Shown here piece by piece: positions 3,001 through 28,792 of a stretch of 64,000 bases of DNA. Each line of letters starts with the position of its first letter. The first letter of the stretch is position 1. The notes below the pieces were generated by a model. That model was not told the DNA's origin. It ran no database searches and was given only the letters and a program-made list of their open reading frames with translations. Source of the stretch: an uncultured Candidatus Saccharibacteria bacterium (GTDB taxonomy: Bacteria > Patescibacteriota > Minisyncoccia > Phycocordibacterales > CAIRYW01); contig CAYUPH010000001.1 in NCBI GenBank assembly GCA_964446625.1, positions 70,283 to 134,282 of the forward strand, written 5' to 3'. A program made the position numbers and the translations under genes.

Positions 3001-3324
3001 CTCTCGTGTAAGTCCTGATTTTGGAGCAATAACGAACTCTCCAACAAGATCTTCTGAGTAAACAACACTCTTTTGTTTTTTTGCATTTTCATAGAGAATA
3101 TTCACTTTGAGCGTCATCTCTGTAGCCGTGCGGTCAGAAAAGTTTTCAATTTTTATAGAACCTTTTATATTCTCCCCAGCAACAAGGTTTTCTGGAACAG
3201 AAAGTTCTGAAACCTTAACAGAAGGAAACCAAACAAGTCGTTCACCTGCTTGCCCAAATGCAGGCACCACCGCAACAAAAGCTAGTGCAGTAGAGAAAAT
3301 GAGAGAACAAATTTTTTTAAACAT
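1..3324 (-). CDS. Large secreted Cys/Gly/Thr-rich cell-surface protein, partial (over 1100 aa; C-terminus beyond window start). N-terminal signal peptide MFKKICSLIFSTALAFVAVVPAFGQAG. An internal hydrophobic helix plus KNRKRF is followed in-frame by a second signal-peptide-like segment.
   Basis: Continuous minus-strand reading frame from the ATG at 3324 with no stop down to position 1. Not in the ORF track because no stop lies in the window. Hand-translated; a segment around 2030-2100 was checked codon by codon. All reported minus ORFs in this region lie in a different frame. Confidence 0.55.
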   Translation of the reverse strand, partial: MFKKICSLIFSTALAFVAVVPAFGQAGERLVWFPSVKVSELSVPENLVAGENIKGSIKIENFSDRTATEMTLKVNILYENAKKQKSVVYSEDLVGEFVIAPKSGLTREFEFVLPRSLYKDNLSLDLLVYHGGKMVSGEVQKNVVVTGQMSPVNMLSGYILLSNGKKTGLTEGPMIYKDRDPKTAELLLTIENSDTKEVSVTPSVRVRKWNPNDKEGNWTDVKSNEGGVSLKTKEKKEVRVSLPTFDYAPGVYEGRLDFLDETGVSRSSPYSFRYVISGDIATVGAITSNKNSVKKGDVLNVSFDVGGVPGDILSTDNQNVYGDHQVKVIVKNEIGRTVGETSMTLKANDAGLKYVTLSAEKDAKALIAKIEVVSSEGKVLAEKTTKLSADFDKIQFNYYKKAALVGLLSLVVAIILIALLWKNRKRFLKIGAIAVFALVASLTFTQTADAGALVFSSRNLTNSRCPDPGISISFSGIADNQEFNPGEQFTVYGYYTYSSCANSAVSGNAAGYILKKSDAEALVIPASAYSTFSGAESRLGIAQIISDSGKTSSVLSSVPYVAWLTGSGECATPGCSRDTPNAELGTFTVPNEPGEYRFYFFVHHVNGCYNNYVLQYIDFKVKPHAPTNLVVGNLSCSLLDVPLSWTASVTQGVTYNVYKSATTFTSTTASGVTKVSSNQTGTTFTDHLTDGRPKDYYYAVTAEKDGSESALSNVIKADFNCLAGVCGAGAGDRTTVPSASDTNLCSNSFASSFVGPTLVNGIRRYSWICKGEIASEDVTCLADVTFNGECGTLDGQTNVPQSTNLTADGVLCASHGGVEITSPTNSRNLTWKCKGSDSSKDVSCSATMTGTPTLNPSCGPFADGRQLGLGKVITDFPPEQLCSIGAPVDFTTEKKSNSEGWYRWQCISQNKTAVCSAPYFRAPAVCSTVENECESGYFMEGTTADTSSVHYWECNNRSDGTGSKASCSINLNEAGCGDANGGNFEATPSADLCLPGSTASAVTSSSNNLYWNWSCSKGTSIKSCQADKASVATPVISATGWCPATPNGKANIDVHVSSDAGVSPITFNIYRSNTSSTVATTSANLVGTLSGSRDSLLTFTDVDKNTNS

Positions 3325-3502: not shown

Positions 3503-4741
3503 ATGTTTGACCTAAAAGTAATACATTCTGTCCTCTCTCAACTAGAAGAAGAGCGTGGAATCCCAAGACAAAAAGTAATCGAGGCTATAGAACTAGCTCT
3601 CGCAACAGCATATAAGAAGGAATACGGTAAAAGAGGCCAGATTGTACGGGCTACTTTTGACCCTGACACTGGAAAAACTGACTTCGTACAGGTAAAAGTT
3701 GTCGTAGACAACACTCAAGTTGTAATGGAGGACGAAGAAGTAGCTCCGGACGACGAGAGAATCAGATACAATGAAGAGCACCATATTCTTATAGATGACG
3801 CTAAAAAGATTAAAAAAGACGCTGCTCTCGACGACGAAATCGTATTTCCCCTTGAAAGTAAAGCTGATTTTGGCCGAATCGCTGCCCAAACAGCAAAGCA
3901 AGTAATCATTCAAAAGATTAGAGAAGCGGAAAAAGTCTCTGTTTTTGGAGAATACGGTGAAAAGGAAGGCACAATTGTCACAGGAAGCGTTCAGAGGATT
4001 GAGCGGGGAAACATCTTTTTTGACATGGGACGCGCCTCTGGAATCCTCCCCTACGAGGAGCAAATTCCTGGAGAAAGATACCGACAGGGAGAAAAAATTC
4101 GAATGTACCTCACAAAAGTAGAGGAAACTCCAAGAGGGGTCTTCCTCCGTCTCTCTAGGGCACATCCTAAATTCCTAGAGAAACTCTTTGAAAACGAAGT
4201 ACCTGAGCTTACAGCCGGAACTATCGAGATTAGAGCAATCGCAAGAGAAGCAGGGTCACGCTCAAAGGTTGCTGTGTACTCAAATGACACTCATATTGAC
4301 CCAATTGGTTCAATGGTAGGTCAGAGAGGAGTTCGTGTTTCAACTGTAATGAGCGAACTAGGAGGTGAGAAAATTGATATTATAGAGTGGTCAAATGACC
4401 CTGAAATCTTTGTTTCCGACTCTCTTTCACCTGCAAAAGTGGAATCAGTCGTCGTAGACAACACTGCAAACACTGCAACGGTTGAAGTTACTGAAGACCA
4501 GCAGTCGCTTGCCATTGGTAAAGGAGGACAAAATGTTCGTCTTGCAGCAAAACTTACTGGATACAAGATTGATATCAAATCAATCAAAGGAAACGGCGAA
4601 GCAGTAGAAGAAAAAGCTCCTGTAGCAAATGAGGTAGAAGATGATGACGAAGGCTACAGCGACCTTTCTTCAGTAAACCTAAGTGACGATACTCAAAACG
4701 AAGAGGAAACTACACCTGAAAATACAGAGGAAAACGCATAA
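3503..4741 (+). CDS. nusA: Transcription termination/antitermination factor NusA
   Basis: 412 aa with NusA N-terminal domain, S1 and tandem KH regions (e.g. IDPIGSMVGQRGVRV, AIGKGGQNVRLA) and an acidic C-terminal tail. Confidence 0.92.
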   Translation: MFDLKVIHSVLSQLEEERGIPRQKVIEAIELALATAYKKEYGKRGQIVRATFDPDTGKTDFVQVKVVVDNTQVVMEDEEVAPDDERIRYNEEHHILIDDAKKIKKDAALDDEIVFPLESKADFGRIAAQTAKQVIIQKIREAEKVSVFGEYGEKEGTIVTGSVQRIERGNIFFDMGRASGILPYEEQIPGERYRQGEKIRMYLTKVEETPRGVFLRLSRAHPKFLEKLFENEVPELTAGTIEIRAIAREAGSRSKVAVYSNDTHIDPIGSMVGQRGVRVSTVMSELGGEKIDIIEWSNDPEIFVSDSLSPAKVESVVVDNTANTATVEVTEDQQSLAIGKGGQNVRLAAKLTGYKIDIKSIKGNGEAVEEKAPVANEVEDDDEGYSDLSSVNLSDDTQNEEETTPENTEENA

Positions 4742-15204: not shown

Positions 15205-15412
15205 TTACACTTGCTTACCCCACAAACAAAAAGGGGTCTCTGGCCCTTTTTGTGTTTGTGGGAGGTAGAGTAATCGGTCACAAGTTACTAAGTCTCTTCG
15301 GGTGAGTACACCCTGCGGGGACTAAGTACTTGCGACCCCGACTCGGCTGCAGTTTTTTGTTACACAAAAAACTGGCTTCGCGCCTCCGTCTTTCGATTCT
15401 CTCTACCTCGCT
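15205..15412 (-). ncRNA. Candidate structured ncRNA (element A) downstream of tRNA-Gly(TCC), with termini that mimic or complement the tRNA 3' end, plus a terminal hairpin (GGGCCAGAGACCCC core)
   Basis: Read on the minus strand, the 5' box GCGAGGTAGAGAGAATCGAAAGACGGAGGCG is complementary to the T-arm/acceptor 3' strand of the adjacent tRNA. The 3' end CCGATTACTCTACCTCCCA mimics that tRNA 3' end. The termini can pair (11 bp, 1 mismatch) and enclose internal hairpins. Homologous to element B at 23622-23795. Confidence 0.45.
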
Positions 15413-15457
15413 ACAAAATTTAGTCGTAAAATGTTCTACATTTTACTTGTAATTTTG

Positions 15458-15528
15458 TGCGGGTAGAGAGAATCGAACTCTCGTCTTCTGCTTGGAAGGC
15501 AGACATTCTACCACTAAACCATACCCGC
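15458..15528 (-). tRNA. tRNA-Gly (anticodon TCC), no encoded CCA
   Basis: Manual fold: acceptor GCGGGTA/TACCCGC, anticodon stem TCTGC/GCAGA, loop CTTCCAA, T-arm GAGAG-TTCGATT-CTCTC, discriminator A. Confidence 0.88.
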
Positions 15529-22668: not shown

Positions 22669-22748
22669 GTGAAACTATTGTAATTAGTAAATATATCCCT
22701 AAGGACTGTTACCACCGTAGCAAATGCAGATTTGCTACTGTATCCTGG

Positions 22749-22820
22749 TCGGAGTACTGGGATTCGAACCCAGACTGAACGCTCCCAAAGCGTTTATGCT
22801 AGCCGTTACACCATACTCCG
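22749..22820 (-). tRNA. tRNA-Pro (anticodon TGG); CCA appears genomically encoded (extends to 22746)
   Basis: Acceptor CGGAGTA/TACTCCG, anticodon stem AACGC/GCGTT, loop TTTGGGA, T-arm CTGGG-TTCGAAT-CCCAG, then ACCA. Confidence 0.85.
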
Positions 22821-23286: not shown

Positions 23287-23621
23287 TTTAAATAGTAAAT
23301 AGTGTTTCTTGTGAAAACTTTTATGGCTAAAGTATAGCACAAACACTTAAGTGTTTCTTATGAAACATATTATTTAACTCTTTTTTACTTAAAATACTCT
23401 GTCTTTTAAAAAAAGACTTGTATTATATAGGTTTTATAGAAAATAGTGCTTTTAGACTTTACAAAAAGACAAAAGGACAGTAGGGGAGTTGTACACTTAT
23501 CCCCTTAGTTATCCACAGTTTTATAGAAAATCTATATTTTATGAGTGGAAAAGTTGGGATATTTGTCTTATATATTAGGGACAAATTAAGAAAAAATGCA
23601 TTAAAAGACATTACTTAATAA

Positions 23622-23648
23622 AAAACAGGGCTCTGACCCTGTTTTTTC
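23622..23648. terminator. Bidirectional intrinsic terminator (GGGTCAGAGCCC core) ending element B
   Basis: AAAACAGGGCTCTGACCCTGTTTTTT. Confidence 0.75.
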
Positions 23649-23795
23649 TTGTGCAGGTAAGGAGAATCGGCCACGGTTTATGGCTAAATTACTCGCGAAA
23701 CTCTAATTGTAGCTCATAACCCCGGCCCGGACTCAGCGACAAGCACTCGCCCTCCTCGTCTTGTGTACCGCCTCCGTCTTTCGATTCTTCTTACC
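23641..23795 (-). ncRNA. Candidate structured ncRNA (element B) downstream of tRNA-Gly(GCC); homolog of element A
   Basis: A 20-nt exact direct copy of the tRNA 3' end plus flank (TTGTGCAGGTAAGGAGAATCG) is at 23641-23660. An inverted copy (CGATTCTTCTTACCT) is at 23776-23795. It shares the box GAATCGAAAGACGGAGGCG with element A. The termini pair over 15 bp with 1 mismatch. Confidence 0.45.
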
Positions 23796-23844
23796 TAAAT
23801 TCAAAATATAGGCGCAAATTATACATAATTTGCTTTTTATTTTG

Positions 23845-23915
23845 TGCAGGTAAGGAGAATCGAACTCCTGTCTCATCCTTGGCAAGGACGTGTCCTACCA
23901 CTAAACGATACCTGC
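23845..23915 (-). tRNA. tRNA-Gly (anticodon GCC), no encoded CCA
   Basis: Acceptor GCAGGTA/TACCTGC, anticodon stem CGTCC/GGATG, loop TTGCCAA, T-arm AGGAG-TTCGATT-CTCCT. Confidence 0.88.
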
Positions 23916-23960
23916 TTGATTAACAATTAGTATTCTAGACTATTTGAGGGAAGATGACAA

Positions 23961-23992
23961 ACAAAAAACCTGCGGAAGTGCAGGTTTTTTGA
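23961..23992. terminator. Bidirectional intrinsic terminator downstream of tRNA-Arg
   Basis: AAAAAA-CCTGC-ggaagt-GCAGG-TTTTTT. Confidence 0.7.
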
Positions 23993-24137
23993 GCGAATAT
24001 GTGGTCCCAAATAATTTCCTCACCCATGTTCGGAAATTTTTGTGACCTCGGCTCGCTTGTTTATACTGAAGTAAAAACATAGCTCCGCCTTGCACAAGTC
24101 TCGTAAAATCCAAAGCAGTTTGGATTTTACTCGCTAG

Positions 24138-24209
24138 TGCACCCGTCAGGACTCGAACCTGAAATAACGGTTCCGAAGACCGGTGTGATATCCATTTCAC
24201 TACGGGTGC
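24138..24209 (-). tRNA. tRNA-Arg (anticodon TCG), no encoded CCA
   Basis: Acceptor GCACCCG/CGGGTGC, D-stem GTGA/TCAC, anticodon loop CTTCGGA, T-arm TCAGG-TTCGAGT-CCTGA. One C/T mismatch at the top of the anticodon stem. Confidence 0.8.
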
Positions 24210-24269: not shown

Positions 24270-25745
24270 ATGAAGAATTTTTTTAATATCCCAAAGGAAG
24301 TATTGGCTGTGGCCGAAAAACTCGAAAATGAGTCATTTGAAGCATACCTTATCGGAGGTTGTGTGCGAGACATGTTCCTTCAAAAGTCGCCAAAAGATTG
24401 GGATATTACAACAAATGCAACTCCAGAGGAGATTCAAAAGATTTTTCCGGACTCATTTTATGAAAACAGCTTTGGTACTGTTGGGGTAAAGGTAGATACG
24501 ACAGATGAGACCCTTCAAGTAATCGAGGTAACACCGTATAGAATAGAAGGGAAGTATACAAACAATAGACACCCAGACGAAGTCAGATTCAGTAAAAACC
24601 TGAGCGACGACCTAAAGAGAAGGGACTTTACAGTGAACGCACTAGCGCTTCGCGTACGCGGAGAGGAAATAGAAGTCGTAGATGAATTTGGAGGAAAAAG
24701 TGACTTACAGAAGGGTATTTTACGCACAGTAGGGCTTCCAAGCGCGCGATTCGAAGAAGATGGTCTTCGTATTTTGCGTGCTGTGCGCCTCTCAGCGCAA
24801 CTCCAGTTTGAAATAGACCCGGAGACAGAAATGGGAATTGTTGAGTGCGGACACTTGCTTCAGAACATTTCTGCAGAGCGAATACGAGATGAATTTGTAA
24901 AAATAATCATGTCAAAAGATCCGGAGAAGGGCATAAAAAGCCTTAGAAAGTTCGGTATTTTGAAATTTATCCTTCCTGAACTCGAAGAGGGAATTGGAGC
25001 TACACAAAACAAAGCGCATATGTACGATGTGTTCGAGCACCTTGTAAAAACTCTTGCATTTTCTGCCTCAAAAGAATTTCCTCTTGAAACTAGGCTCGCA
25101 GCGCTTCTTCACGACATAGGAAAGCCTGCGACACGCAGATTTTCGCCAGAGAAGAAAGAATATACTTTTTACGGTCATGAGGTAGTAGGGGCGAGAATGG
25201 CAAAAAAAATCCTCACGAGACTCAAATTTCCTCTTGGAGTAGTAGAAAGAGTAACCTCTCTTGTCCGCTGGCATATGTTTTTCTCTGATACAGAGACAAT
25301 TACTCTCTCTGCTGTCAGGAGGATGATTCAAAATGTAGGAAAGGACCAGATTTGGACCCTTATGGATGTGCGAGCATGTGACCGTATTGGAACAGGAAGG
25401 CCAAAAGAAGCTCCTTTTAGACTCAGAAAATACCATGCAATGATAGAAGAGGCGCTTCGAGATCCTGTGTCTGTTTCTCAACTCAAAGTGGACGGCAAAG
25501 ACTTAATGACAGTTCTTGGAACACCACCTGGAAAGCATATTGGGTATATACTACACGCTCTGCTAGAAGAAGTTCTGGACGATCCAAAGAAAAACACTAA
25601 AGAATACTTAGAAAATAGAGCTAAGGAACTATGTAAACTTCCTGAAAACGAACTAAAATTCCTCGGCGAGAAGGGGAAAGAGAAAAAAGAGGAAGAGGAT
25701 GAAAAACTTGTTGCTTCTATACGAAAAAGACACTTTGTAGAGTAA
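24270..25745 (+). CDS. cca: CCA-adding tRNA nucleotidyltransferase with HD domain
   Basis: Pol-beta motif GGCVRD, HD motif LLHDIGKPATR and a K/E-rich C-terminal extension. Confidence 0.88.
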   Translation: MKNFFNIPKEVLAVAEKLENESFEAYLIGGCVRDMFLQKSPKDWDITTNATPEEIQKIFPDSFYENSFGTVGVKVDTTDETLQVIEVTPYRIEGKYTNNRHPDEVRFSKNLSDDLKRRDFTVNALALRVRGEEIEVVDEFGGKSDLQKGILRTVGLPSARFEEDGLRILRAVRLSAQLQFEIDPETEMGIVECGHLLQNISAERIRDEFVKIIMSKDPEKGIKSLRKFGILKFILPELEEGIGATQNKAHMYDVFEHLVKTLAFSASKEFPLETRLAALLHDIGKPATRRFSPEKKEYTFYGHEVVGARMAKKILTRLKFPLGVVERVTSLVRWHMFFSDTETITLSAVRRMIQNVGKDQIWTLMDVRACDRIGTGRPKEAPFRLRKYHAMIEEALRDPVSVSQLKVDGKDLMTVLGTPPGKHIGYILHALLEEVLDDPKKNTKEYLENRAKELCKLPENELKFLGEKGKEKKEEEDEKLVASIRKRHFVE

Positions 25746-27501: not shown

Positions 27502-28416
27502 CTATTTTTTATGAAACTTTTTATGAATTTCTCTGAGGTGCTGGTCTGTGACGTGTGTATACACCTGTGTAGTTGCAATATTTGAGTGTCCTAGGAGCAT
27601 TTGTACCGAACGGAGATCAGCGCCGTTGCGAAGGAGGTCTGTTGCAAAACAGTGTCGAATCACGTGAGGGGTTACTTTTTTTGATACACCTGCGATAATT
27701 GCAAATCTTTTTACAAGACGCTCGACAGAGCGGGGAGTAAGGCCTGAACCCTCTTTTTCACCTTTTTCTTTTCCAAGCTTTACAAAAAGCTCTCCTCCTA
27801 AATCTTTGCGCAGTTTTAAATAATCCTTTACGCAGGCTTTTGCGTCATCAGAGAGAAAGACAACGCGCACTTTCCCCCCTTTTCCTCGAATCGAGATTTC
27901 GTCGCGAGAAAAGTCCTCGTCACGAGAAAGGGAACAAAGCTCTGAAACACGAAGCCCTGTTGAAAAAAGAAGCTCTAGAATTGCTTTGCCTCGAGCTTTT
28001 GCAAGAGGGTCTTTTTCTTTGTTTGGTGCGTCAAAAAGTCTGCGTAGCTCCTCGGGGGAAATGAGGTCAATTTGTCTTTCGGGAACTTTTGCAAGCTCTA
28101 TATTTTCTGCAGGGAGGGAAGTGATGCTTCGTTTTGCTAAAAACTTAAGAAAAGCACGGAGCGCGATAAGATAGTAATTTTGTGTTTTGCGCTTTAGCGT
28201 GTCTGTACTGTTTCTTTTACCAGCACTTTGACGATTGAGCCAGAGTCTGAACTCCCGGACAGTTTCAGGGGTTATATCCTTTGGGTTTGTGAGCTTGGTA
28301 TGGGTTAAAAAAACAGTCAGGTAGTGGTCATAATTCTCCACAGTCTTTAGACTGCGCCCTTTTTCTATCTCGATATGCTCCAAGAATTGTCGTTTTAGCT
28401 CGTCTAAGGTGTACAT
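27502..28416 (-). CDS. xerC: Tyrosine site-specific recombinase, XerC/XerD family
   Basis: C-terminal catalytic region with HVIRHCFAT, LLGHSNIATTQVYTHV (R..H..R..Y pattern). Start chosen at MYTLDELKRQF (28416); the longer track ORF adds a hydrophobic N-terminus of doubtful reality. Confidence 0.85.
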   Translation of the reverse strand: MYTLDELKRQFLEHIEIEKGRSLKTVENYDHYLTVFLTHTKLTNPKDITPETVREFRLWLNRQSAGKRNSTDTLKRKTQNYYLIALRAFLKFLAKRSITSLPAENIELAKVPERQIDLISPEELRRLFDAPNKEKDPLAKARGKAILELLFSTGLRVSELCSLSRDEDFSRDEISIRGKGGKVRVVFLSDDAKACVKDYLKLRKDLGGELFVKLGKEKGEKEGSGLTPRSVERLVKRFAIIAGVSKKVTPHVIRHCFATDLLRNGADLRSVQMLLGHSNIATTQVYTHVTDQHLREIHKKFHKK

Positions 28417-28516
28417 AAGGAAATTATACCATGTCGCACAATAAAGTGTGGGTCTATAGCTGGGGAAATAGGAAAAGCTTGCGTTTTTAGCCTTTTTGTG
28501 ATAGCATACTCCCACA

Positions 28517-28792
28517 ATGCTTACAAAAACCAAAAAGACAAAAATCATAAAAGATACACAGGTTCACGACAAAGATACTGGTTCTCCAGAAGTGCAGATT
28601 TCTATTCTTACAAAAAGAATTGATGAGCTTTCAAGTCACCTAAAAACACACAAAAAAGATAACCACTCAAGACGAGGTCTCCTTCAGCTTGTTGCAAACA
28701 GACAAAGTCACATGAAATATCTTCAAAAGAAAGATGCAAAAAGATACGCGTCTCTTATGAAGAAGCTTGATCTCAAAAAGAAAGCGGCGTAA
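28517..28792 (+). CDS. rpsO: 30S ribosomal protein S15
   Basis: [35 protein letters not shown] is canonical S15. Confidence 0.95.

Follow-up and report, generated by a model that had tools for sequence, protein, structure and literature searches.

A structured element downstream of tRNA-Gly(GCC)

We examined a window of 64,000 nucleotides from an uncultured Candidatus Saccharibacteria bacterium (GCA_964446625.1, contig CAYUPH010000001.1, positions 70,283 to 134,282), with all coordinates given relative to its first letter. ARAGORN and Rfam (tRNA, 63.2 bits) identified an intact tRNA-Gly(GCC) gene with no encoded CCA at 23844-23915 on the minus strand, and this gene is followed by a 46-nt spacer, a ~150-nt element predicted to fold into a three-way junction, and an intrinsic-terminator-like hairpin. 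The last 18 nt of the tRNA, from T-loop C56 to the discriminator (positions 56-73), plus 3 nt of trailer form the first copy of an exact direct repeat (23842-23862), and the second copy, termed b, lies at 23649-23669, where it provides the 3′ strand of the closing helix P1 followed by the rest of the tRNA 3′ end and CAA. This 21-mer, TTGTGCAGGTAAGGAGAATCG, occurs exactly twice in the window, whereas none was expected in 100 shuffles, and the repeat extends to 28 nt at 93% identity (23642-23669 and 23835-23862).

The spacer (23797-23843) holds an A+T-rich 9-bp hairpin (23814-23833) and a U-rich stretch that complements the tRNA trailer. It is followed by arm a, CGATTCTTCTTACCT (23782-23796), the 5′ strand of P1, which is the Watson-Crick complement of the T-loop 3′ half, the T-stem 3′ strand and part of the acceptor 3′ strand of the tRNA, being 93% complementary over 15 nt to the distal repeat and 94% over 17 nt to the tRNA's own 3′ end. 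A box, CGCCTCCGTCTTTCGATTCT, occurs exactly twice in the window, at 23769-23788 and 15381-15400, and in the RNA sense this family-invariant box (AGAAUCGAAAGACGGAGGCG) covers inner P1, the junction and the base of P2 with a bulged G and a tandem G.A motif. P2 (23728-23776) has a 3-bp base that covaries across the family (G-N-C with G-N'-C), then the bulged G plus tandem G.A, then a variable hairpin. P3 (23669-23727) is a long variable hairpin, which in this copy reads GGGCCGG...CCGUGGCC where the family consensus reads GGGGUCGCG...CGUGACC, and it keeps the bulged A. The terminator-like G+C hairpin (GGGUCAGAGCCC core) followed by a U-run (23617-23645, with the hairpin and U-run proper at 23622-23645) reads as a terminator on both strands. 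The element folds far better than its shuffles, with a z score of -5.7 for this copy (copy B) and -7.4 for copy A.

A covariance model built for the family (R1), with the order P1, junction AAR, P2, junction GGG, P3, P1, matched three copies in the window: copy B at 23659-23792 (47.5 bits, E 3.7e-10), copy A at 15266-15403 (minus strand, 49.3 bits) behind tRNA-Gly(UCC) (15457-15528), and a more divergent copy C at 23994-24103 (minus strand, 30.5 bits, E 1.2e-5) behind tRNA-Arg(UCG) (24137-24209, minus strand). Three of the four tRNAs in the window carry the element. Copy A has a spacer hairpin equivalent to that of copy B with a different sequence, and its distal repeat has diverged from the tRNA end, while its arm a still complements the tRNA end perfectly over 14 nt. 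In copy C, P2, P3 and the bulged A are kept but P1 is not T-loop-like; a hairpin with a CUGC loop precedes it (about 24104-24131), and a terminator (23962-23991) follows. We considered a kissing interaction between the CUGC-loop hairpin and the AGCAG loop of P3, but the two did not co-occur consistently in the sequences inspected, and this idea was dropped.

A consensus scan revealed a sigma-70-like promoter candidate (TTGTCA-17-TAGAAT, 10 of 12 matches) at 23932-23960 on the minus strand, just upstream of tRNA-Gly(GCC), and no promoter-like site between the tRNA and the element. The only promoter-like sites lie upstream of the tRNAs and the terminators lie after the elements, from which it is inferred that the fold would be made as the 3′ part of a tRNA-element precursor RNA and released when the tRNA 3′ end is cut.

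Comparison with the sequence-only reading

The element had first been noticed in a reading of the sequence alone, and every feature described there exists, although the coordinates were 3 to 9 nt off. The repeats had been placed at 23641-23660 and 23839-23858 and the inverted arm at 23776-23795, rather than at the positions given above. That reading missed that the elements lie on the minus strand, downstream of the tRNAs, and it missed copy C. The CCA-adding enzyme gene (24270-25745, Pfam PolyA_pol + HD) and two more CCA-less tRNAs, tRNA-Arg (24137-24209) and tRNA-Pro (22746-22820), are nearby, as it had stated.

Its interpretation, that two independently maintained copies paired with different tRNA-Gly isoacceptors suggest function rather than debris, was only partly supported. 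Copies A and B do belong to one structured family under selection, the arms are tailored to the neighboring tRNA, and in a thermodynamic co-fold, a check it had proposed, the 5′ arm does invade the T arm and the acceptor 3′ strand of the tRNA. In contrast, a specific link to tRNA-Gly isoacceptors was not supported, since the family follows many other tRNAs and tmRNA, and neither was a functional tie to the CCA-adding enzyme gene, since that neighborhood is conserved in a relative that lacks the element (locus L003; retrieved loci are cited by number). Absence of the element next to tRNA-Gly in related genomes, which that reading had named as speaking against it, was seen only in part: among syntenic relatives, L003 lacks the element, whereas L001 and L005 have it. 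The alternative that the repeats delimit a degraded mobile element fits the repeats, the tandem arrays and the patchy occurrence, but no integrase remnants were found and the core is intact rather than degraded.

The element belongs to a widespread family behind tRNA and tmRNA genes

A search with the core pattern, whose seed excluded the GAUUCG and GACUCG T-loop variants, hit at least 120 genome stretches, nearly all from candidate-phyla-radiation (CPR) bacteria. Model R1 found 115 copies in 97 DNA stretches (743 kb), nearly all from CPR bacteria and some from Elusimicrobia. Pattern hits in records of Enteromonas, Bacilli, Kofleriaceae, Gemmatimonadales and Eisenbacteria lie inside coding-like DNA, and the five of these that were among the 97 sources searched with the model gave no hit; all of them were therefore treated as chance. 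In the loci examined, 92 of 162 tRNA/tmRNA genes have a copy within 160 nt downstream on the same strand, covering at least 16 tRNA specificities and tmRNA, and the copies always lie on the tRNA's strand. Since these loci were mostly picked up through the element itself, the true share is lower, and we estimate roughly 17% among the other tRNAs there.

In a unit of the family, the intact tRNA is followed by its trailer and a hairpin, then by arm a, which complements the T-loop 3′ half, the T-stem and sometimes the acceptor 3′ strand, and then by the conserved three-way junction, in which P3 has conserved G.U pairs and a bulged A. In 93 tRNA-linked cases the element ends in a copy of the tRNA's last 18 nt, with a median of 17 of 18 identical. 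Exact runs peak at 18 to 22 nt from C56, where the repeat always starts, and reach 69 nt. Trailers after the two copies are still more alike than chance (9.2 against 6.4 identical of 20). The repeat is better kept than pairing requires, since the outer part of arm a pairs only about 3 of 4 T-stem positions.

No Rfam 15 family other than tRNA (and tmRNA in L056) matched at the gathering score in the window or in 15 further loci, and at E values up to 10 only chance-level hits overlapped copies A and B. Full-text literature searches, including searches for the conserved sequence strings, found no description of this element. The family is apparently undescribed.

Compensatory changes indicate a selected fold

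To test if the predicted fold is under selection, we examined covariation in the family alignment. In total, 88% of cells are paired, against 74.5% in shuffles and 33-43% with slid partners, and 131 cells show changes on both sides, against 45.5 in shuffles, a value reached by 0 of 500 shuffles. Pair 16-47 at the base of P2 was found as CG 15, AU 6, UA 3, GC 2 and UG 1. Inner P1 switches with the T-loop type (GAAUCG/CGAUUC, GAUUCG/CGAAUC, GAUUUG/CAAAUC and GACUCG/CGAGUC). G.U cells outnumber A.C cells 60 to 28, pointing to the sense strand. The orthologous cores of L064 and L072 are about 93% identical, while the spacer and the downstream flank have diverged. These results indicated that the conserved fold of the strand matching the tRNA's sense strand is what selection maintains.

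Compensatory change and a core conserved above its flanks are also what a host-useful RNA would show. We consider, as a serious though less favored rival, a host-serving non-coding RNA embedded in the tRNA 3′ trailer, in which the three-way junction would be a stable RNA, for example a protein-binding or sponge RNA, made in step with tRNA transcription. In this view the closing helix copies the neighboring tRNA's acceptor/T-stem 3′ strand, so that tRNA end-processing enzymes (RNase P, RNase Z and the CCA-adding enzyme) could trim it, and new copies would arise only rarely, by local duplication. The conserved G.U and G.A motifs, the promoter and terminator layout of the window, and copy C, which keeps P2, P3 and the bulged A even though its P1 no longer resembles a tRNA end, agree with this view, as do the old and diverged copies within genomes and the approximately 30% of copies that also carry an acceptor-strand complement, giving a tRNA-like stacked helix. 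However, in many genomes a strong terminator-like hairpin with a U-run lies between the tRNA and the element, and the repeat of the tRNA end is far better kept than its pairing partner a. Where the two repeat copies differ, a matches the tRNA's own end and not the element's 3′ strand (25 against 2 positions). GNRA and UNCG loops are almost absent (7 of 244 hairpin loops), and in tmRNA cases a places A opposite U70 and so does not imitate the acceptor's G.U identity pair. Patchy occurrence, tandem arrays and stacked remnants (below) also speak against it.

The RNAs derived from tRNA 3′ external transcribed spacers (e.g., 3′ETS-leuZ of E. coli) and the tRNA-like processing mimics (mascRNA and YrlA) are similar in being made from the same precursor as a tRNA, as is inferred here, and in a closing helix resembling an acceptor/T-stem stack that tRNA end-processing enzymes might recognize. 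The present family differs from them in having no T-loop or D-loop mimic, no Rfam match and no known partner, and in being multicopy with target-matched arms. In the window the element does lie between the tRNA and the terminator, although without expression data and with a terminator-like hairpin before the element at many other loci.

A cis-acting switch on tRNA maturation was also considered, in which a would pair either with the tRNA's own 3′ end, disrupting the tRNA, or with the distal copy, forming P1, and the junction would sense a protein, ion or metabolite and decide which pairing wins. Minimum-energy folds of both full transcripts (copies A and B) pair a with the tRNA's 3′ end and the tRNA's 5′ half with the distal copy, a tracks the tRNA's own end, and the junction nucleotides are invariant, as in ligand-binding RNAs. 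We nevertheless regard this reading as improbable, since the tRNA is transcribed first and should fold first, many loci have a terminator before a, copy C and many other copies have little or no outer complementarity, only a subset of tRNAs carries the element, and no precedent is known. The layout does not fit a riboswitch or T-box leader upstream of a regulated gene, because the element is followed by a terminator and no co-oriented gene.

A self-cleaving ribozyme helping to process the trailer, analogous to the theta (minimal HDV-like) ribozymes behind phage tRNAs (PMC10879173), appeared very unlikely. The position behind tRNA genes and the compact junction with invariant nucleotides would agree with it, but no ribozyme family (hammerhead, HDV-like/theta, twister, pistol or hatchet) was hit in Rfam by copies A and B even at E values up to 10, and no hammerhead or HDV core signatures were seen on inspection. 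Unlike the theta ribozymes, the element has a different fold, is chromosomal with no copy found in viral contigs, and is separated from the tRNA by a spacer, the core starting 20 to 110 nt after the tRNA end.

Distribution and dynamics resemble those of an insertion element

Tandem arrays and stacked remnants were found in L100, L065, L066, L056, L092, L121 and L001, and presence varies among the syntenic relatives, as described for L001, L003 and L005. The syntenic tRNA-Gly(UCC) locus of L073 (73.6% identical over 2.6 kb) carries a different P2/P3 variant from copy A, and in L085 a 2.4-kb cargo lies between the tRNA and the core.

To test if mobility genes accompany the elements, 2661 ORFs from the loci were clustered, and this gave only housekeeping families (HU, YraN, RNase Y, the CCA enzyme and a protease), with no recombinase, transposase or reverse transcriptase enriched within the 8-kb loci. 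The unit itself is about 200 nt with no ORF, and the window's integrase-family gene (27502-28548, Pfam) is syntenic in relatives with and without the element. No copy was found in 2.9 million viral contigs: one of two scans returned no hits, and the 9 pattern hits of the other neither matched the model nor lay near a tRNA. Copies within one locus are no more alike than copies from different loci (median identity, 0.41 against 0.43), giving no sign of recent bursts. A metagenome scan with the 3′ half of the window's tRNA-Gly for empty-site alleles in close relatives returned nothing, and no insertion event was seen directly.

An intron in the T-loop was rejected, since the tRNAs upstream are intact and not interrupted as by a group I or bulge-helix-bulge intron, joining upstream sequence to the distal copy produced no tRNA in 20 orphan copies while the positive control worked, and the published group I introns of Patescibacteria sit at anticodon-loop position 35/36 (PMC13011429).

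Like tRNA/tmRNA-integrating genomic islands and prophages and their gene-less derivatives (cis-mobilizable elements), the element sits at the 3′ side of tRNA and tmRNA genes, is flanked by a direct repeat of the gene's 3′ end that begins inside the T-loop, forms tandem accumulations and leaves the tRNA intact. It differs from them in being only 100 to 200 nt long, with no integrase in or near it, one conserved core serving more than 16 targets, an arm complementary to the tRNA end and a structure that covaries. That the copies are merely attL-attR scars of degraded islands or prophages, comparable to a cis-mobilizable element and with no function of their own, is improbable: the repeats and the cargo genes of L085 would agree with it, but a 75-nt core is conserved across more than 100 species with compensatory changes, the size is uniform (100-160 nt), and no integrase remnants or viral copies were found.

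Integron attC sites and CTX-phage-type folded single-strand attachment sites share the conservation of structure rather than sequence, a strand-specific fold, conserved bulged bases with variable hairpin tips, and a folded hairpin that would recreate a duplex identical to the target. In the present family the bulged G (column 18) is invariant across the seed alignment, as is an A in the 3′ strand of P3 consistent with the bulged A of column 78, while the P2 and P3 tips vary. However, the consensus is GAAUCG...CGAUUC around a three-way junction and not a single hairpin, with no R''/R' boxes (RYYYAAC/GTTRRRY), no dif-like sequence and no integron integrase or array context.

Bacterial miniature inverted-repeat elements (MITEs, Correia, ERIC and RUP) are likewise small, non-coding, hairpin-forming, multicopy, intergenic and likely co-transcribed with neighboring genes. 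Here, in contrast, the terminal repeats match the neighboring tRNA and are not fixed, the duplication is long (18-69 nt), not of fixed length and anchored at one end in the T-loop, copies within a genome are highly diverged, and compensatory changes are seen.

Taken together, we tentatively favor, at somewhat less than even confidence, the view that 23617-23843 is one unit of a family of miniature non-coding insertion elements that occupy the 3′ flank of tRNA and tmRNA genes in CPR/Patescibacteria and some Elusimicrobia. In this view the element arrived through a DNA-level insertion or duplication event anchored in the T-loop, which leaves the tRNA intact, produces the direct repeat from either the tRNA-proximal or the distal copy, acts on any gene carrying a T arm and builds tandem arrays, with the required machinery encoded elsewhere because no mobility gene travels with the element. 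While selection on the fold is shown by covariation, this origin, the co-transcription with the tRNA, any benefit to the host, and any activity of the fold, be it as RNA or as folded single-stranded DNA and including recombination or self-cleavage, are inferred at most. A simple integrase model cannot explain the same core variants sitting at different tRNA types unless cores recombine with one another, and neither this model nor the host-RNA model identifies how arm a becomes matched to each tRNA.

A more far-reaching possibility, which we regard as unlikely but not excluded, is a new class of gene-less mobile element, in which a roughly 75-nt folded core, acting as RNA or single-stranded DNA, would insert behind any gene with a T arm and copy the target's own 3′ end on both sides of itself, direct on one side and inverted on the other. 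It would so retarget itself without a dedicated guide or a cis-encoded enzyme, and would thereby shape tRNA transcription units across the CPR.

CPR bacteria have tiny genomes with little spare DNA. If mobile, the element would be an unusually small and specific insertion system that keeps its target gene intact, pointing to an unknown recombination or copying activity in these organisms; if it is a host RNA, it would be one of the most widespread unannotated structured RNAs in a major part of the bacterial tree, tied to tRNA production. In either case model R1 allows these elements to be annotated, and they can confuse tRNA-end, terminator and att-site predictions and can break assemblies, as the L100 array contains an N-run.

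Organization of the tRNA-Gly(GCC) locus

All four tRNA genes in the window lie on the minus strand. Read on that strand, the locus runs from a promoter-like site at 23960-23932 through tRNA-Gly(GCC) at 23915-23844, which has no encoded CCA, to a 46-nt A+T-rich spacer holding a 9-bp hairpin, a highly structured segment of roughly 150 nt and a G+C hairpin with a U-run at 23645-23617. The features described in the sequence-only reading of this locus are all real, although its coordinates were 3-9 nt off. The 21-mer direct repeat of the tRNA 3' end occurs at 23649-23669 and 23842-23862, i.e., 2 occurrences against 0 expected, and the repeat reaches 28 nt at 93% identity. The inverted arm lies at 23782-23796, and the box shared with copy A, the family copy behind tRNA-Gly(UCC), lies at 23769-23788 and 15381-15400. 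The segment, hereafter copy B, is predicted to fold as a three-way junction closed by the two arms, with a z-score of -5.7, compared with -7.4 for copy A.

A family of elements behind tRNA and tmRNA genes

The neighbouring genes are housekeeping genes encoding RNase Y, a class I tRNA synthetase, the CCA-adding enzyme and YraN, and homologues of the CCA-adding enzyme place the organism among the Parcubacteria/Paceibacterota of the candidate phyla radiation (CPR). Comparison with syntenic loci of relatives revealed the element behind tRNA-Gly(GCC) in L001 and L005 but not in L003.

To examine how far the element extends, we built a pattern from the four copies then known (GAATCGAARRNCGGAG, 15-45 nt, GGGTCGC), and this hit at least 120 stretches among species-representative genomes. 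Nearly all of these are CPR (Parcu-, Kaiser-, Yonath-, Zambryski-, Taylor-, Campbell- and Nomura-bacteria, plus records labelled Saccharibacteria), while five are Elusimicrobia and one is WS2. The few hits in other phyla lie in coding-like DNA, and those that were searched with the covariance model described below gave no hit. The pattern hits lie 20-110 nt downstream, on the same strand, of tRNAs for Gly, Glu, Leu, Arg, Met, Pro, His, Trp, Ala, Phe, Lys, Val and Ile; the model adds Cys, Ser and Tyr, and copies also follow tmRNA genes.

Next, a covariance model (R1) was constructed from an alignment of 27 short members (A2). R1 finds three copies in the window, namely, A, B and a divergent copy C at 23994-24103 (minus strand) behind tRNA-Arg(UCG) (24137-24209); a terminator at 23962-23991 follows copy C. 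In copy C, P2, P3 and the bulged A are kept, but the closing helix is UGUG/CACA instead of T-loop-derived, and a hairpin with a CUGC loop precedes it. An 86-aa ORF at 23940-24200 overlaps copy C and the tRNA and is probably spurious. In the 743 kb of retrieved loci (L numbers), R1 finds 115 copies, and 92 of 162 tRNA/tmRNA genes in those loci carry one. Since the loci were mostly picked up through the element, this overstates the share, which we estimate at roughly 17% among tRNAs that were not the reason for retrieving a locus.

Anatomy shared by the family

The tRNA is followed by its trailer and a hairpin, often terminator-like, and optionally by a complement of the acceptor 3' strand and a hairpin with a CUGC loop. 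Then come a complement of the T-stem 3' strand and of the T-loop 3' half (GAAUCG), junction AAR, P2, junction GGG, P3, and finally CGAUUC with the rest of the tRNA 3' end. The base of P2, G-N-C, pairs with G-N'-C and is followed by a bulged G, tandem G.A pairs and a variable tip, whereas P3 (GUCGCG...CGUGAC) has conserved G.U pairs and a bulged A. The minimal form is about 75 nt, and in this form even the "variable" P3 hairpin (AUUUUUCAGCAGAAAAAUA) is conserved across distant genomes and across different tRNAs.

Many copies, including those in L013, L022, L023, L035, L042, L059, L066 and L086 and that at about 24104-24131 of the window, carry the CUGC-loop hairpin with a conserved sequence (consensus around AGCRRGNNAACUGCUUNNCYYGCG) between the acceptor-strand complement and the T-stem complement. 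Together these give a tRNA-like outline of acceptor stem, one arm and T stem, with the core in place of the T-loop. A subfamily (L037, L053, L084, L107, L035, L046, L098, L048 and L085) has a small extra hairpin inserted in the 3' strand of the element, between CCGA and the rest of the tRNA 3' end copy, for example CCGAAAGUGUACUCACGAUUCCC; the model truncates these matches at positions 9-82.

Covariation in the predicted fold

To test if the fold is under selection, we scored base pairing on alignment A2. Here, 88.0% of cells pair, compared with 74.5% in shuffles and 33-43% when partners are slid by 1-3 columns, and 131 cells show changes on both sides against 45.5 in shuffles, a value that none of 500 shuffles reached. 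The N-N' pair at the base of P2 shows CG, AU, UA, GC and UG. The inner closing helix, invariant in the seed, switches with the T-loop type in copies found by the model (GAUUCG/CGAAUC, GAUUUG/CAAAUC and GACUCG/CGAGUC). Three observations favour the tRNA-sense strand as the folded one: G.U cells outnumber A.C cells 60 to 28, one G.U pair is present in 26 of 27 sequences, and the tandem G.A motifs only make sense on this strand. In the orthologous pair L064/L072, whose loci are 82% identical, the core is about 93% identical, while the spacer is less conserved and the downstream flank does not align. These results indicated that the fold is under selection.

The repeat exceeds what the fold requires

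The distal copy matches the last 18 nt of the tRNA with a median of 17 of 18 identical, and exact runs start at C56 and peak at 18-22 nt, with a tail up to 69 nt. Beyond the tRNA end, the two trailers are still more alike than those of unrelated loci (9.2 of 20 positions, or 7.7 without the long repeats, versus 6.4). By comparison, arm "a", the 5' strand of the closing helix, is only partly matched beyond the T-loop: it pairs 3.0 of 4 T-stem positions with its own tRNA against 2.1 with other tRNA types, contiguous pairing is 3.5 against 1.3, and a complement of the acceptor strand is present in about 30% of copies. Where the two repeat copies differ, "a" complements the tRNA's own end at 25 positions and the distal copy at 2, although many of those cases look like single deletions in the distal copy, such that the test is weaker than the counts suggest. 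Arm "a" is a Watson-Crick complement of the 3' strand and not a copy of the tRNA's 5' strand, and in tmRNA cases it places A opposite U70. We therefore attribute the repeat to a DNA-level event anchored in the T-loop, not to selection for pairing.

Signs of insertion dynamics

Tandem arrays of identical units were observed in L100 (2500-3020), where three identical units of about 140 nt lie behind tRNA-Arg(CCU) with a run of N inside the array; such arrays appear to break or confuse assemblies. Arrays of different units and truncated remnants were found in L056, L092, L121 and L001. In L056 (1164-1871, minus strand), a tmRNA gene (Rfam 128.5 bits) is followed by two different family copies and a truncated third, and several other tmRNA 3' ends show the same pile-up, as in L092 and L121, including more divergent cores (GGGAAGYGAAAG...) that the model does not score. 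Presence is patchy among syntenic relatives. Furthermore, different P2/P3 variants occur at the same tRNA locus in the window and in L073, and the same variants are shared between different tRNA types. In one locus, L085 (4418-7005, minus strand), 2.4 kb lie between tRNA-Gly(UCC) and a family core that still ends in the tRNA-Gly(UCC) 3' end; the insert holds a CopG-type ribbon-helix-helix gene and two ORFs with no Pfam match, and it may be a cargo-carrying version or a later insertion.

Other data argue against a classical mobile element. No mobility gene is enriched near the elements, no copy is found in viral contigs, copies within a genome show no excess of similarity, and no pair of filled and empty alleles was obtained. 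The only recombinase candidate in the neighbourhood is a tyrosine-recombinase gene (Phage_integrase plus SAM-like N-terminal domain) at 27502-28548 (minus strand), about 4 kb away. It is syntenic in L001, L003 and L005 whether or not they carry the element, so it looks like a housekeeping Xer-type gene.

Transcriptional context and predicted folding of the transcripts

In the window, the only promoter-like sites lie upstream of tRNA-Arg and tRNA-Gly, and terminator-like hairpins follow the elements. The elements should therefore be transcribed with their tRNAs. In many other genomes, however, a strong terminator-like hairpin precedes the element. The sequence-only reading had proposed to test if the 5' box of the element can invade the T arm of the adjacent tRNA, and such invasion was indeed predicted: the minimum-energy fold of each whole transcript pairs "a" with the tRNA's own 3' end and the tRNA's 5' half with the distal copy. 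Nevertheless, we infer that co-transcriptional folding would probably favour the normal tRNA.

Hairpin loops across the family (alignment A3) are dominated by C-AGCA-G (40), C-GACG-G (38) and C-GAA-G (9), and only 7 of 244 are GNRA or UNCG. This is unusual for a selected RNA, and it leaves room for a folded single-stranded DNA form comparable to integron attC or CTX-type sites.

Comparison with known systems and interpretation

The element behaves like a tRNA-integrating island in where it sits and in its repeats. It resembles an attC site in being a strand-specific conserved fold with bulged bases, and a MITE in size, yet it fails at least one defining test of each of these three. It resembles a tRNA-trailer RNA in its likely expression; the layout in the window fits such an RNA, whereas many other loci have a terminator-like hairpin before the element. 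It matches no Rfam 15 family, and literature searches found no description of it.

Thus, the observation made from the sequence alone is confirmed. Its interpretation is partly right, since the structure is real and selected and the arms are matched to the tRNA, but it is wrong in scope, because there is no link specific to tRNA-Gly or to the CCA-adding enzyme. Our tentative best explanation is a miniature, gene-less insertion element directed at the T-loop, with a selected sense-strand fold, co-transcribed here with the tRNA. Within this explanation, selection on the fold rests on the covariation itself, whereas the insertional origin and the co-transcription are inferred from sequence alone. 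The main rival, which we regard as rather less likely, is a host-serving RNA in the tRNA trailer.

DnaA-box-like sequences downstream of tRNA-Gly(GCC)

DnaA-box-like 9-mers lie about 100-300 nt downstream of tRNA-Gly(GCC), at 23509-23517 (TTATCCACA) and 23495-23503 in the window, and they recur at the same place in three syntenic relatives (L001, about 2700-2740; L003, about 3650-3690; and L005, about 3060-3075). This could be a replication origin or a DnaA-regulated promoter.
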